The translations under genes were made by a program, and so were the position numbers. Positions 1 through 4,144 of a DNA stretch of 64,000 bases are shown here, piece by piece. The DNA is from Ignavibacteriota bacterium (GTDB taxonomy: Bacteria; Bacteroidota; Ignavibacteria; UBA10030; CAVZMI01), in assembly GCA_963776275.1 (NCBI GenBank), contig CAVZMI010000034.1:32001-96000 (forward strand), read 5' to 3'. The notes under the pieces were generated by a model. It did not search any database, was not told the DNA's origin, and saw only the letters and a program-made list of their open reading frames with translations. The number at the start of each line of letters is the position of its first letter. Position 1 is the stretch's first letter.

Positions 1-12
1 TGAGGAATATAT

Positions 13-534
13 ATGTTTTTTGGATTATTAAAAGTCGATAAATCAGAGCCAAAAATAAAAAAATTGGATGCACCTATAAAAATGATCGGTGTTTCGCTGA
101 AGACAAGTATGAAAACAATATATAAAGATGCAGTTGTTTTAGGAAAAGAATATCAAAAGGTTAAAAAGCTAAACATAATTCAAAATAAAAAAATACCCTG
201 GTCTTTCGTTGCGGTAAGTAAAAATTTCAGTGATAACAATAGTAGGTGGGAATATTTGATGGGTGATGTTGTAACAACATTTGATAATACACCGAAAGGA
301 TTAATAACATTTGAAATTCCAGCAAATACTTATGCAGTATTCACAATTCGGCCAAAATTAAATTTTCTTTGGGATCCTATTATTGGGATGACAAAGAAGT
401 ATATATTTACAGAGTGGCTGCCTAATTCAAAATATGAATCTAATAATAGTATTATAGGTGATTTTGAATATCACGATGAACGAAGTGTATCTAAAAATCC
501 ATCCATAGATTTGTATGTAGCTGTTAAAGATTAG
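13..534 (+). CDS. GyrI-like small-molecule binding domain protein (cassette 1)
   Basis: Motifs IKMIGVS...YLMGDVV...PKGLITFEIPANTYAVFT...YIFTEWLPNSKYE...DFEYHD...IDLYVAVK are typical of GyrI-like/AraC effector-binding domains. Very AT-rich. Confidence 0.85.
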   Translation: MFFGLLKVDKSEPKIKKLDAPIKMIGVSLKTSMKTIYKDAVVLGKEYQKVKKLNIIQNKKIPWSFVAVSKNFSDNNSRWEYLMGDVVTTFDNTPKGLITFEIPANTYAVFTIRPKLNFLWDPIIGMTKKYIFTEWLPNSKYESNNSIIGDFEYHDERSVSKNPSIDLYVAVKD

Positions 535-558
535 AAGTGAAATAATATGCATACAGCT

Positions 559-664
559 GCATATCATAGCAGGCACTATAACGTGAAAAACACCCTACCC
601 CGCCACATAAAATTATTTTATATCAGTATCGGGTAAGACGGTGTGGTTTGCGTGAACGTTATGG
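559..664 (+). other. attC-like site 1
   Basis: GCATATC (559-565) to GTTATGG (658-664). Imperfect outer stem GCAGGC/GTTTGC, inner CACC/GGTG and an ATAAAAT/ATTTTAT hairpin. Confidence 0.6.
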
Positions 665-696
665 GCAATTGCTAACACAAAAGAAGGAGAGGTCTT

Positions 697-1731
697 GTGT
701 CTCGTAGGCTCCATATGGAAATCATCTTATTGATCTTATGCGCTGCGACAAATTTGGTAATGAGCCAGGAGATACTAACGATAAGCACGAAGATCCCACA
801 CGCTCGGAAGTACCACAGCTTCCTGTACCACGATACCAGCGGTTGTGTTCTTTTGTTCTCAGGCGTTTCGAGAAGCGGATGGACGACCGATCTCATGGAC
901 ATCTGGTCGTATGATGTAAAGTCTGGCCAATGGAACAACGTCGGCATCTGTGAACCTCTCCAGCCCGACAGCTCTAATGTATTCACTTCCGCTGTCTACG
1001 ATAGCAAATCAAATCGCGTTATAATATTCGATCGTCAGGGACAAACCTGGGCCTATCATTTTGAGAAGAATACGTGGCAGAATATGAAGCCGAATGTATC
1101 GCCACTCCCCCGATGCGGGCAGGGGATGGCGTATGATACTGAATCCGACCGCGTGATTATGTTCGGCGGATTTGGATGCAAGGGAGTCAACGACAGCGTT
1201 TATGCGGACACATGGGCCTATAACTATGATTCCAACACCTGGACCTTGATGCATCCCATGCTTTCCCCACCCGCTCGTATGTACTCTGCGATGGCAGACG
1301 ACAGTAAACTGGATCGCGTTGTTATGTGGGGAGGAAGGCTGTGGAAGCCGTTGCCGGACAACGCTGTGTGGGCATACGATTTTAATTCTGATACCTGGAC
1401 TCGCTACGAGAATGACGGCGGCCCGGCACAGGCGCTCACCTATGCCAACATGGTATACCGGACAGCGACTCACGATTTCTTTCTGTATGGAGGTGCAGTG
1501 CTAGTAGCAGCGTTCAAAGGCAAGCCCACGAATGAAACGTGGACGTATGAACTTTCTTCCAACACATGGAAGCGGCTCATGCCAAACCATTTGCCACCCC
1601 CACTTGCCAACCACGGTATGGCGTATGTCCCGACTAGCAGTGTCGTCATCCTGTTCGGGGGAGAACTTGTAGCTCTCTATTCTGACAAGCTATTCAGTGA
1701 CGTTCTGGTTATTCGACTCGAAGACAAATGA
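697..1731 (+). CDS. Secreted Kelch-repeat (beta-propeller) protein (cassette 2)
   Basis: Signal-peptide-like N-terminus and repeated P-P-R/H-GMAYD...VIMFGG...DTWAYxxxxNTW Kelch units. RBS AAGGAG upstream of the GTG start. Confidence 0.85.
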   Translation: MSRRLHMEIILLILCAATNLVMSQEILTISTKIPHARKYHSFLYHDTSGCVLLFSGVSRSGWTTDLMDIWSYDVKSGQWNNVGICEPLQPDSSNVFTSAVYDSKSNRVIIFDRQGQTWAYHFEKNTWQNMKPNVSPLPRCGQGMAYDTESDRVIMFGGFGCKGVNDSVYADTWAYNYDSNTWTLMHPMLSPPARMYSAMADDSKLDRVVMWGGRLWKPLPDNAVWAYDFNSDTWTRYENDGGPAQALTYANMVYRTATHDFFLYGGAVLVAAFKGKPTNETWTYELSSNTWKRLMPNHLPPPLANHGMAYVPTSSVVILFGGELVALYSDKLFSDVLVIRLEDK

Positions 1732-1758
1732 TTGGGTCAAGCAATAGTTCGCAACTGC

Positions 1759-1884
1759 TCATATCACGCAAAACAACGACGTTGGAATAGGCAGGGAATA
1801 AAAAACCTCGCTCAATATTTTTGTTCGCTTGAATTAGATTTATACGCTCACAAAAATATTGCGTTGTTTTGCAGGACGTTAATC
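1759..1884 (+). other. attC-like site 2
   Basis: TCATATC (1759-1765). Perfect stems GCAAAACAACG (1768-1778)/CGTTGTTTTGC (1862-1872) and CAATATTTTTGT (1813-1824)/ACAAAAATATTG (1850-1861). Ends GTTAATC (1878-1884). Confidence 0.75.
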
Positions 1885-1926
1885 GCCACACAGCGGACAA
1901 TTTGTGCAATCAACGGAGGTGAATTT

Positions 1927-2771
1927 GTGAACTCCAAATGCATCATTCTGCTTGTTGCATTTATTGCTGTGCGATATTCTGCAGCACAGCAAGAGGCAAA
2001 GCTCTACGGAATCGAACGCGTCTATTTCCGACCTGTTCTAGAATCGGATTCAAACCTGATGCGACAGCCCAACGTGGCCTCATTTCTGCCGATTCAACTC
2101 AAGTCTTCCGACCTCGGCTCAATTTAAACAACTCTTTGGATGAAATAGCTGTTCGGGATTTTCGTCTCCCATTTGATCCTCACGGTAAGGAACTCTGGAT
2201 TCGGGAGATTGTTAACAGTGAACATCATCGAATATTTGAGACATGGTGGGCCATGTATGCAGGTGGAAAACGTAGTTGCTTGTGGCGCTTTAGGGCCGAT
2301 CCGAGAGACAACGACGACAAAGCGCTAACGAACTATGTACTAGATAGTGTGTTACAGTCTGGAGAGCACACCATCGCTGTTCGAGTCCAAGGAACAATGT
2401 TTCGCCCACAAGGGGCTTGGTGGGTAACAGGAAAAGTGTTCAATTTCTCCATAGTCGACTCTGGATTAGTTTTCTCATGTATTGAAAACACGTTCGGCTT
2501 TTTTCATGGCTACAACCGGGGCGAGGATCCGCCGATCAGCGTCATGTCGGAAGAGCTAGTCGACAAGCGTTTTCGGAAGCGTGAGGTGTACAAAACTCCC
2601 GAGCATATTCTCAGGCTATGCGGATTCCGAAATCCAGTAACAGATGACGCATCACAATTCAATTGGATAGAACTCCGACAAGTTGCTCGCTGCATTACCG
2701 AAAGAGCTGGTGCAAAGGAATCTTTTCGTGCAATGTATGCACCCACGTTTGTTGAACGTGGTGGGAAATGA
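1927..2771 (+). CDS. Hypothetical secreted protein, frameshifted near 2115-2127 (cassette 3)
   Basis: GGAGGT RBS then GTG at 1927 with a signal-peptide-like start in the 1732..2127 frame. Continues in the 1938..2771 frame. Confidence 0.6.
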
Positions 2772-2835
2772 GGTGTGCTCACCAAGCAACATGGTTTACG
2801 TAGTATTAAGGTCGGAGGGTGATCCGCTTCGCGGC

Positions 2836-2983
2836 ACTTATCAGCACCAACTACGACACTCGCTTCATTTGGTAAGGCAACGTTGGTCCCTAGTTCGGCG
2901 CGACAAATAAAGGTCGTTCACCCCGCCCGTCAATTGACAGAATGTTGGTCGGTCGGGGTGCGTAGTTGGCCCAGATGTTATGC
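2836..2983 (+). other. attC-like site 3
   Basis: ACTTATC (2836-2842). Stems CCAACTACG (2847-2855)/CGTAGTTGG (2961-2969) and CACCCCGCCCG (2919-2929)/CGGTCGGGGTG (2950-2960). Ends GTTATGC (2977-2983). Confidence 0.75.
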
Positions 2984-3035
2984 GCCATTTGCGTTGCGTT
3001 AACTCATGAGAAACAGGAACGAAAGGGAAAACAAT

Positions 3036-3398
3036 ATGAAAGTCACAGGACTCTCTCTCTGCCTCCTTATAGGAACGGTCTTCTTGTACAACGGATGCAA
3101 GGATGACACAACGGCCCTAGAAGATAATATCTGTTCCTTTGTTAATCCGTATTTGGTTGATAGGCCCGAGAATGGTGCCAATATTCCAGGTTGCGGAACT
3201 ACAAATGTAACTGTTTCAAATGTTCAGCGTATCCAACCATATGCAGTTGTATATTCATTTGATTTCACAATCTCCTGTTCGTCCAGTGGAAAGACTTACT
3301 CGGGGAGAGTCTACGAAGTTGAGTATTCGGACAATTGGATTCCAATAGCTTACAAGCTGGATATTAACGGGAAAAATTGTGGTAGGATTCAAATGTAG
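3036..3398 (+). CDS. Hypothetical lipoprotein (cassette 4; no downstream attC-like site seen)
   Basis: MKVTGLSLCLLIGTVFLYNGC lipoprotein-type signal; the mature part contains several Cys residues. Confidence 0.7.
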   Translation: MKVTGLSLCLLIGTVFLYNGCKDDTTALEDNICSFVNPYLVDRPENGANIPGCGTTNVTVSNVQRIQPYAVVYSFDFTISCSSSGKTYSGRVYEVEYSDNWIPIAYKLDINGKNCGRIQM

Positions 3399-3448
3399 GA
3401 ATTAGCTGGAGAATTGACCAATCATCAATGCCGGAGCGATATTCTTAT

Positions 3449-4144
3449 CTATTCCTTCTCTTTTTTCTTCCCTTCGATGACAATGACAAATTCCCCCTTG
3501 ATGTTCCGGGATGAAAAATGTTCAAGAACCGAAGAGACGGAACCGCGCAGCACCTCCTCGAATTTTTTCGTCAGCTCGCGCGCCACGGCAATCCGGCGAT
3601 CGCCAAAATACTGCTGAATATCTGCAAGTGTGCGGAGTACTTTATGGGGGGATTCGTAGAGGATGACTGTCCGTTCCTCTTTTGCAAGCCGTTTCAGCAT
3701 CGTCTGGCGCCCTTTCTTCGCCGGCAGAAAGCCTTCGAAGACGAACGCATCCGCCGATAAACCGCTGACGACGAGAGCGGCCACAAAGGCGGTGGGGCCC
3801 GGAATGGGAACGACCGGCACATCGGCGTCGATCGCGGCACGCACAATGCTGTAAGCAGGATCCGAGATGCCCGGCGTCCCGGCATCCGACACCAGCGCGA
3901 TCGATTGACCCTGCTCGAGCTTATCTATAAGATCGGGTACCCGGCGCTGCTCGTTATAACTGTAGAAGCTTATGAGCGGTTTCTTAATTTCGAAATGATC
4001 TAATAGAATCTTCGTCGTTCGCGTGTCTTCTGCAGCTATCAGATCGACAGATTTTAATATCTCCAGCGCCCGTACGGTGATATCGCCGAGATTGCCGATA
4101 GGAGTCGCGACAATAAATAAGACTCCTCGCGAAGTATTCACCAT
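3449..4144 (-). CDS. rsmI: 16S rRNA (cytidine1402-2'-O)-methyltransferase
   Basis: LFIVATPIGNLGDIT, AAEDTRTT, VSDAGTPGISDP, YESPHK and ARELTKKFEE motifs. Start moved to the ATG at 4144. Confidence 0.95.
   Translation of the reverse strand: MVNTSRGVLFIVATPIGNLGDITVRALEILKSVDLIAAEDTRTTKILLDHFEIKKPLISFYSYNEQRRVPDLIDKLEQGQSIALVSDAGTPGISDPAYSIVRAAIDADVPVVPIPGPTAFVAALVVSGLSADAFVFEGFLPAKKGRQTMLKRLAKEERTVILYESPHKVLRTLADIQQYFGDRRIAVARELTKKFEEVLRGSVSSVLEHFSSRNIKGEFVIVIEGKKKEKE

Follow-up and report, generated by a model that had tools for sequence, protein, structure and literature searches.

The first 3,423 positions of the stretch analysed here, a window of 64,000 nucleotides (nt) from an Ignavibacteriota bacterium (genome G000, contig C34, positions 32,001-96,000), carry a row of genes that resembles the cassette array of an integron. 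The recombination sites of integron cassettes, attC, bear RYYYAAC, the inverse core, on the left and GTTRRRY, the core, on the right. Sedentary chromosomal integrons, such as those of Vibrio, with its VCR sites, and Xanthomonas, hold many cassettes of mostly unknown function, have lineage-specific attC sites and turn over fast.

Complete integrons are recorded "in Chlorobi and Ignavibacteriae" in the accessible part of the IntegronFinder 2 paper (PMC9024848). That paper also defines the cluster of attC sites lacking an integron-integrase (CALIN), described there and in the available text of Cury et al. 2016 (PMC4889954) as a small row of co-oriented open reading frames (ORFs) and sites with no integrase nearby, thought to be degraded. 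In the same portion of Cury et al., recombinases without the intI_Cterm domain that lie close to attC sites are judged not to be IntI, as they are always accompanied by fewer than three sites. According to an excerpt of Smyshlyaev et al. 2021 (PMC8138268), the insertion is conserved incompletely within the integron-like subgroup of simple tyrosine recombinases. In archaeal integrons, as presented in the portion of Ghaly et al. 2022 available, attI lies immediately downstream of intI and the additional domain is present. Integron searches define the integrase by this extra domain, which the literature calls necessary for activity. No description of attC arrays headed by an insertion-less IntI-like recombinase was found in the accessible parts of the full-text literature, subscription journals and supplements being outside its scope; as far as searched, such an integron variant is undescribed.

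The window array is read here, with a probability of roughly 0.85, as an integrase-less, partly decayed cassette array of a variant integron that would be served by an insertion-less IntI-like enzyme. Its cassettes have recognizable boundaries, its sites belong to one family, that family is physically linked to recombinase genes, and cassettes turn over between relatives. In the proposed mechanism each cassette would be a promoterless unit of one ORF and a folding recombination site, joined to its neighbor at G/TT, and the short recombinase would catalyze the exchange, using the folded bottom strand. In this genome and across its order the sites, termed type B here, lie directly downstream of and co-oriented with the recombinase gene, with attI 13-46 nt past its stop codon. 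The array on C34 would have lost this gene while keeping its attI-like head, and movement of its cassettes would now need the intact recombinase encoded on contig C23 of the same genome, acting in trans.

The comparison set consists of 41 genomes of the same order (Ignavibacteriales-like), including G001 from the same genus and G002 from the same family. G000 itself is a draft bin, 96% complete with 5.3% contamination. Metagenome data come from one public peat run, X1, as contigs only, with 9% of sampled words. Positions outside the window are given on L011 (C34:29001-36000), where the L011 position equals the window position plus 3000.

Chained cassette ends and a family of folding sites

Window positions 1-3423 very probably make up the far two thirds of an array that spans 5.2 kb and comprises six cassettes of integron type (C34:30290-35423). 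The head, cassettes and sites are listed below, where R'' and R' are the left and right core boxes of a site and R1 is a covariance model built from 29 aligned sites in other arrays, none of them from C34.

C34:30228-30295 (L011 1228-1295), plus strand: attI-like head site, a palindrome, 6 nt, then GTTAGGC
L011 1290-2255, plus strand: cassette with a split lipoprotein-like ORF, broken across two frames
L011 2256-2967, plus strand: DUF3795 cassette, upstream of the Cass2 cassette
Window -32 to 658 (start L011 2968), plus strand: Cass2 cassette, ending at the G of R' at 658
559-664, plus strand: site 1, attC-like, of the Cass2 cassette; R' GTTATGG from 658; R1 19.5 bits, E 0.0028
659-1878, plus strand: Kelch cassette, from the TT past the crossover up to the G of the following R'
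1759-1884, plus strand: site 2, type-B attC; R'' TCATATC ends at 1765, R' GTTAATC from 1878
1879-2977, plus strand: cassette with a split secreted ORF (1926-2771), no Pfam family
2836-2983, plus strand: site 3, type-B attC; R'' ACTTATC ends at 2842, R' GTTATGC from 2977
2978-3423, plus strand: last cassette, with a lipoprotein-like ORF (3036-3398), no Pfam family and no terminal site

A first-pass annotation of the window had proposed integron-type cassettes bounded at G/TT from the complementarity of their ends. The strings on which it relied stand exactly in place, GTTATGGGCAATTGC at 658-672, GCAACTGCTCATATC at 1751-1765, GTTAATCGCCAC at 1878-1889 and GCGGCACTTATC at 2831-2842, and a recount returned the same matches between the left end of site 2 and the right end of site 1 (12/15) and between the left end of site 3 and the right end of site 2 (8/12). 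The AYGTTA endings it reported for the three spacers are likewise exact (ACGTTA, ACGTTA and ATGTTA). Its further claim, that a site pairs with its upstream neighbor and not with its own end, held in a control that compared five right with five left ends at complementary positions 5-20 from the crossover (n = 16), excluding the GTTA/TAAC core. The right end of one site matched the left end of the next at 13, 14, 12 and 11 of 16 positions, against 3-4 of 16 for a left end and its own right end and 3-11 for the other non-adjacent pairs, and the upstream neighbor was the best of the five partners in all four columns. The margins of the two pairs in the window are narrower (12 versus a next best of 11, and 11 versus 9) because the ends share family consensus sequences, which fall into two classes.

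Both junctions that precede the window are unambiguous, and a repeat finder independently ranks them within the five longest of the 182 inverted repeats detected on the 7 kb of L011 (26 nt at 81% and 21 nt at 86%). In other type-B arrays, complementarity between neighboring ends reaches 15/16, and own-site and reverse pairs never exceed 11. Such a pattern is what joining at G/TT produces, since the left end of a cassette's site is then complementary to the first bases of its own cassette. Neighbor-specific complementarity and chaining at G/TT occur at all four C34 junctions, and homologous copies that begin at the R' core agree with the cassette limits proposed. Before the Cass2 ORF, an R'' is complementary to the cassette start at 18/21 positions and is followed by AAT-ATGTGCAATTGC where GTT-ATG is expected; neither R1 nor a hairpin scan finds a full site there, and the R'' left end alone remains. 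Copies of the DUF3795 cassette (L011 2936-2990; L022 3086-3326, minus strand) both keep an R'' complementary to the cassette start and diverge 2 nt after it, which may reflect a crossover or a deletion at R''.

The type-B consensus runs from an R'' of the form ..TAAC-A through a stem of 10-12 bp and two inner hairpins, forming a three-way junction, to a 4-nt spacer and GTTA, over 105-200 nt. The R1 consensus fold has 24 pairs, all 24 with compensatory changes across the 29 members; type-B sites are therefore imperfect palindromes whose structure is conserved beyond sequence, with site 1 a weak case. Site 2 matches R1 over its full length (L011 4759-4884) at 75 bits and E 1.4e-15, its bottom-strand DNA fold has a z score of -3.5, and its BLAST relatives lie in arrays of G033, G028, G006 and G034. 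Site 3 scores 57.7 bits (E 9.7e-12; L011 5836-5983), is 93% identical to a site of the C23 array (C23:229944-230094) and folds more stably on the bottom strand (-27.7 kcal/mol, z -3.2) than on the top (-20.9, z -0.7). Across the family, bottom-strand folding is favored in 25 of the 29 sites, by a mean of 2.9 kcal/mol, with kin among them not independent. A site two cassettes upstream of that of site 1 (L011 2102-2261) scores 71.8 bits. With filters off, every R1 match on L011 is on the plus strand, and the head site reaches 12 bits, which is not significant. Judged by R1, three strong sites and one weak one thus stand in a row with no integrase nearby, in line with the CALIN definition of at least two attC sites.

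Site 1 has BLAST relatives in G001 (C5:126102 and C15:3087). Its R'' is placed at 559-565 (GCATATC) by the model, whereas the fold pairs R' with CTATAAC at 576-582, and in neither placement has it a good upstream partner (3-4/16 for 576-582). Against the attC motifs, the right ends GTTATGG, GTTAATC and GTTATGC keep GTTA and only part of RRRY; on the left, ..TATC stands in sites 2 and 3 and GCCTAAC in the upstream site.

A BLAST search with the 7 kb against the 41 genomes showed that the spacers and not the genes recur, at 73-93% identity in C23, C32, C7 and many relatives, often clustered. In G000, R1 finds 38 matches at E<=0.01, 14 of them on C23 and 9 on C32. Rfam models matched only the tRNA and the signal recognition particle (SRP) RNA in the 7 kb and nothing within the spacers, and they matched nothing at the rsmI locus of G001. 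A dispersed repeat family of this sort, with stable intergenic hairpins at sites 2 and 3 and with hairpins flanked by YAAC and GTTR no commoner than in a reversed-genome control, is also what a fixed gene cluster would display if its spacers were structured intergenic repeats, resembling repetitive extragenic palindromes (REP), miniature inverted-repeat transposable elements (MITE) or terminators. That explanation is highly improbable: dispersed repeats are not expected to show neighbor-specific end complementarity, and here all sites are oriented as the ORFs, head-to-tail, and tied to a recombinase gene. Nor is the gene order fixed, a check the first-pass annotation had itself named; the gene content of the locus is wholly different in G001 and absent in G002, where there are no sites, and a single unit of ORF plus site is missing in a close relative.

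Insertion-less IntI-like recombinases

The candidate enzyme is encoded in the same genome, at the head of another type-B array:

C23:235648-236583: short IntI-like tyrosine recombinase, 311 amino acids (aa); TIGR02249 237.7 bits, below the cut-off of 265

TIGR02249 is nevertheless its best NCBIfam family, XerC and XerD scoring 178-179 bits. G000 has no TIGR02249 match above the cut-off, and its two best, on C23 and C22, lack model positions 181-234. The best solved relative is VchIntIA (2A3V), in which residues 179-239 (61) stand where the C23 recombinase has residues 184-204 (21). Compared with the canonical IntI of its relatives, the C23 enzyme is about 38 residues short in the IntI-specific region; the distance from KDR to HxLRH is 61 in C23 and 58-64 in the short forms, against 100 in 10 of the 11 canonical sequences measured. 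It thus falls outside IntI on two counts, the TIGR02249 cut-off and the IntI-specific additional domain near patch III. Invariant alignment columns include R140, K165, H232, R235, H258 and Y267, which correspond to the catalytic residues of tyrosine recombinases.

The copy on C22 (L107 1512-4349 = G000:C22:9512-12349) shows 99% identity as far as the catalytic tyrosine and diverges right after it; a GIY-YIG ORF and an rve-type transposase separate it from its first cassette site. Each of the two copies stands at the head of a co-oriented array. The first ORFs 3' of the two genes, examined as accessory genes of the platform, are unrelated to each other. Type-B arrays occur on several contigs of G000, namely C23, C22/C32, C34, C7 and C12. 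At five loci of relatives (L123, L127, L128, L132 and L137) the short-form ORFs reach 385-445 aa when read from the first start after the upstream stop, which represents either N-terminal extensions or over-long start calls.

The association of short recombinases with type-B sites extends through the order. At 20 short-form loci from 16 relatives, 33 strict site matches fall within 110,445 bp on the downstream side and 2 within 111,427 bp on the upstream side; a site is present at 9 of the 10 loci whose downstream DNA spans at least 6 kb. In 5 of 9 loci, a GTTA 13-46 nt past the stop codon has a 17-18/20 complement ending in TAAC 566-4531 nt downstream, so that the first cassette begins directly after the recombinase gene. 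At least two R1 matches (E<=1e-6) are found in 16 of 17 genomes with the short form versus 7 of 24 without it, a comparison in which kin are not independent and R1 includes sites from seven of the genomes compared, G000 among them. One exception, G013, has two short-form copies on tiny contigs and no sites. The 80 loci of distant homologues (41-59% identity, from many phyla) show a fivefold higher site density downstream, with 27 sites in 218,183 bp, than upstream, with 11 in 438,698 bp; only 12 of the 37 whose downstream DNA extends for 1.5 kb or more contain a site.

Canonical IntI above the TIGR02249 cut-off is present in 13 of the 41 genomes, the full-length proteins scoring 409-485 bits. 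Of six canonical loci inspected, three have arrays, of 5, 10 and 3 sites, always upstream of intI and never downstream; in the other three, either the upstream DNA is shorter than 450 bp or sites are absent. Those next to canonical intI have the look of textbook attC, with GCCTAAC, a spacer of 5 nt on either side, an L box that contains an extra base and a length of about 164 nt. Unlike these, type-B sites have spacers of 1 nt and 4 nt, a conserved ACGAC and, by eye, a three-way core. The canonical integrons of the order resemble the type-B systems in their hosts, in the chaining of ends at G/TT and in the recombinase subgroup, the two kinds of enzyme being 37-38% identical; they differ in that their arrays lie upstream of intI, their 5-nt spacers are symmetric, their L box has an extra base and their insertion is present.

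These contrasts bear on whether the C34 array is simply an ordinary CALIN, its cassettes made and mobilized by a canonical IntI that has the additional domain and whose gene was lost or left unassembled, the short recombinase being a bystander. Canonical IntI does circulate in the order, the G000 bin is 96% complete and could have missed the gene, and G008, G019 and G026 have 5, 7 and 10 type-B sites with canonical IntI and no complete short form, although G008 retains a 102-aa IntI-like fragment. The insertion is moreover held necessary for activity in the accessible parts of the literature (Messier and Roy 2001 as cited in PMC9668308; Cury 2016, PMC4889954). Against this stand the lack of any above-cut-off canonical IntI in G000 and of any at all in G001, and the position of canonical arrays upstream of intI with a different site architecture, where type-B arrays begin 13-46 nt past the short-form stop. 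An ordinary CALIN of this origin is accordingly regarded as unlikely.

A quick recombinase tree, suggestive only, comprises 61 rows rooted on two Xer-like G000 proteins and includes 33 of the 80 distant loci, picked by hand, and 11 canonical sequences, which represent 11 of the 13 genomes that carry canonical IntI; five partial or badly extracted rows were dropped. In it the short forms of the order appear as one clade (SH-aLRT 99), sister (89) to canonical IntI together with three insertion-less proteins, and both clades appear to lie inside an insertion-less grade. Beyond the decayed array in the window, it may be, at slightly better than even odds, that IntI-like recombinases lacking the additional domain serve a distinct class of integrons that is widespread, with three-way-junction attC sites of their own that favor the bottom strand and attI just after the stop codon. 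The window array would then be a decayed member of that class, and, with canonical IntI apparently nested in the insertion-less grade, these enzymes would be candidates for the state before the insertion was acquired.

Several described systems approach such a class. The C34 array shares with CALINs the small co-oriented row of ORFs and sites with no integrase nearby; it differs in that its sites are a separate structural type, an attI-like head is kept and the C23 enzyme would fail the IntI test of IntegronFinder. Archaeal integrons, in the part of Ghaly et al. 2022 available, share the order of gene, attI just after it and co-oriented cassettes, whereas their additional domain is present by definition of the searches and the C23 enzyme has 21 residues where VchIntIA has 61. 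The integron-like subgroup, as far as the accessible text of PMC8138268 describes it, fits an insertion-less IntI relative, and that text gives no function, sites or arrays for insertion-less members.

Sedentary integrons resemble the type-B arrays in their homogeneous attC family, conserved in sequence as well as structure, and in turnover among close relatives. They differ in that here there are several arrays per genome, recombinase gene and cassettes point the same way and the enzyme lacks the IntI insertion. For the window alone the outcome is modest, a real cassette array in all likelihood, integrase-less and partly decayed. If the wider proposal were true, many orphan attC clusters might be complete systems that standard tools would file as CALINs, integrons would be commoner in Bacteroidota-related phyla than recorded, and the step from Xer-type to integron-type recombination could be tested with natural intermediates.

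Head, borders and turnover of the C34 array

The first-pass annotation had placed a recombinase gene and attI upstream of position 1. Half of this expectation was borne out, since two further cassettes and the attI-like site (C34:30228-30295) lie there; the recombinase gene does not, the flank being formed by tRNA-Ala and SRP RNA. No recombinase remnant was detected by tblastn in the 7 kb of L011 (none below E 2), contig C34 has no TIGR02249 match, and no intI stands beside the array as it would in a complete integron. The head site is homologous to the sequence directly 3' of the stop codon of the C23 recombinase, and the homology covers the palindrome arm which at C23 encodes the last codons of the recombinase. 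There is thus a strong case that the array is a CALIN-type remnant that kept its attI-like head and lost its recombinase gene.

It looks worn relative to the C23 array. Two or three R'' boxes have ATC in place of AAC, of one site only the R'' persists, the recombinase gene has been lost and no site follows the last cassette. Of the six ORFs, two are broken across frames, possibly through assembly error in the draft bin. In the secreted ORF (1926-2771), the signal peptide lies in 1926-2127 and the remainder, 2130-2771, in another frame; the frames overlap near 2127, and the change is either a frameshift or an assembly error.

The genes carried by the cassettes and the features at the borders are as follows.

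13-534, plus strand: Cass2 / GyrI-like effector-binding ORF, 173 aa; PF14526 E 3.4e-17, PF06445 E 6e-9
697-1731, plus strand: secreted Kelch-repeat beta-propeller ORF, 344 aa; PF24681 E 4e-35, PF13415, PF13418
L011 1125-1150 and window 3421-3446, plus strand: direct repeat around the attI-like site and array, 19/26 identical
3449-4141, minus strand: rsmI-like methyltransferase, conserved flank; PF00590 E 2e-33; DNA 94% identical in G001

ORF and Pfam results agree with the earlier description of four mutually unrelated, co-oriented genes in the window, followed by rsmI on the opposite strand. Pfam names PF14526 "Integron-associated effector binding protein", and the Cass2 cassette has a GC content of 29-31% versus 46-54% in the adjacent cassettes. 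An array lying between tRNA-Ala/SRP RNA and rsmI explains why four unrelated genes sit there. On the left, the SRP RNA and tRNA-Ala genes occupy L011 681-864 on the minus strand (Rfam). On the right, homology restarts at L011 6424 in G001 and 6427 in a metagenome contig (window 3424-3427), and R1 has no match 3' of the last cassette (window 2978-3423); the array therefore ends at rsmI with a siteless gene, as had been claimed. Four tandem copies of a 38-40-nt unit (CCCCGTTCTTGGGCAGTCCCACGTTTCGTGTGGGGCAG) at L011 865-1029 (C34:29865-30029) abut the 5' end of tRNA-Ala(CGC).

The contents between these borders change among relatives. In G001 the rsmI gene is preceded by clear type-B sites and by wholly different ORFs (170, 874, 332 and 603+109 aa); its upstream flank is on a separate contig that ends early, leaving the left border there unseen. 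In G002, rsmI and tRNA-Ala are 178 kb apart and neither has sites beside it. A 2.2-kb X1 contig of about 95% identity joins L011 2967 to 3665, skipping 697 nt, and so lacks the Cass2 cassette. A second X1 contig is homologous to the DUF3795 cassette from 2 nt before the G of R' onward, and in a third homology stops exactly at the 5' end of tRNA-Ala. The C23 array also contains a copy of the DUF3795 cassette, at 89% identity. In an X1 contig (record 4; L011 3592-3649 and 4458-4758) the hairpin after the Kelch ORF resembles that of site 1 and not that of site 2, and 104 nt are missing within the Kelch gene.

The 26-nt direct repeat brackets the attI-like site and the array and has no other occurrence at the 19/26 level in 14 kb (both strands of L011). 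Together with the separation of tRNA-Ala and rsmI in G002 and the decayed look of several C34 sites, it could indicate that head and array arrived beside rsmI as one integrative island and that the cassettes have been static since. The left copy is a full hairpin with a T-run and resembles sequence beside rsmI in G001, where the hairpin is complete; the repeat is open to being read either as an attachment-site duplication or merely as the rsmI terminator. Because G001 and a metagenome contig differ by whole cassettes within the same boundaries, cassette-level change would be needed after arrival in any case. A single static arrival is possible though doubtful, and it is compatible with the reading of the locus as a decayed array of a variant integron.

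Several observations weigh against that reading. Site 1 folds no better than shuffled sequences (z -1.1) and is weak by R1 too. Sites 2 and 3 read ATC in R'' where the family, in most of 37 genome matches read, has AAC, and site 1 likewise reads ATC in the placement given by the model. Neither copy of the DUF3795 cassette has a recognizable full site. A strict hairpin scan is not enriched genome-wide, with 118 matches versus 162 in the reversed-genome control, so that clusters alone are informative. The joint of the Cass2 deletion falls inside an 8-nt repeat (GCAATTGC) just to the right of two cores and not at G/TT, and homologous recombination between short repeats could equally explain the loss. 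No circular junction was seen in run X1, whose contigs cannot show excision. G001, a 99% complete bin, has 21 type-B sites (E<=1e-6) and no recombinase match at E<=1e-25, and G019 and G026 pair type-B sites with canonical IntI alone, so the short recombinase does not always accompany such sites. The incompleteness of the G000 bin, in which a canonical intI could be unassembled, also belongs here. The earlier description of these cassettes as excisable is thus not sustained, given ATC in sites 2 and 3, the weakness of site 1 and the site before the Cass2 ORF cut to its left end.

The C23 array contains further unusual units. A 2.8-kb cassette (L022 12755-15491, minus strand) carries three genes, for a C-5 cytosine methylase, an ApaLI-like endonuclease and a Vsr-like endonuclease, the ApaLI-like assignment being weak (E 2.4e-4, below cut-off), and its ends are complementary at 19/20 positions. 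On the same contig (G000:C23:248758-250284) the site scan also picked up a 55-nt hairpin unit in five copies, spaced mostly by 156 nt, which look like a different tandem repeat and not like an attC array. A 1.7-kb gap in the C23 array holds a 300-aa ORF on the opposite strand (L022 5008-5910, plus strand), which may be an insertion sequence.

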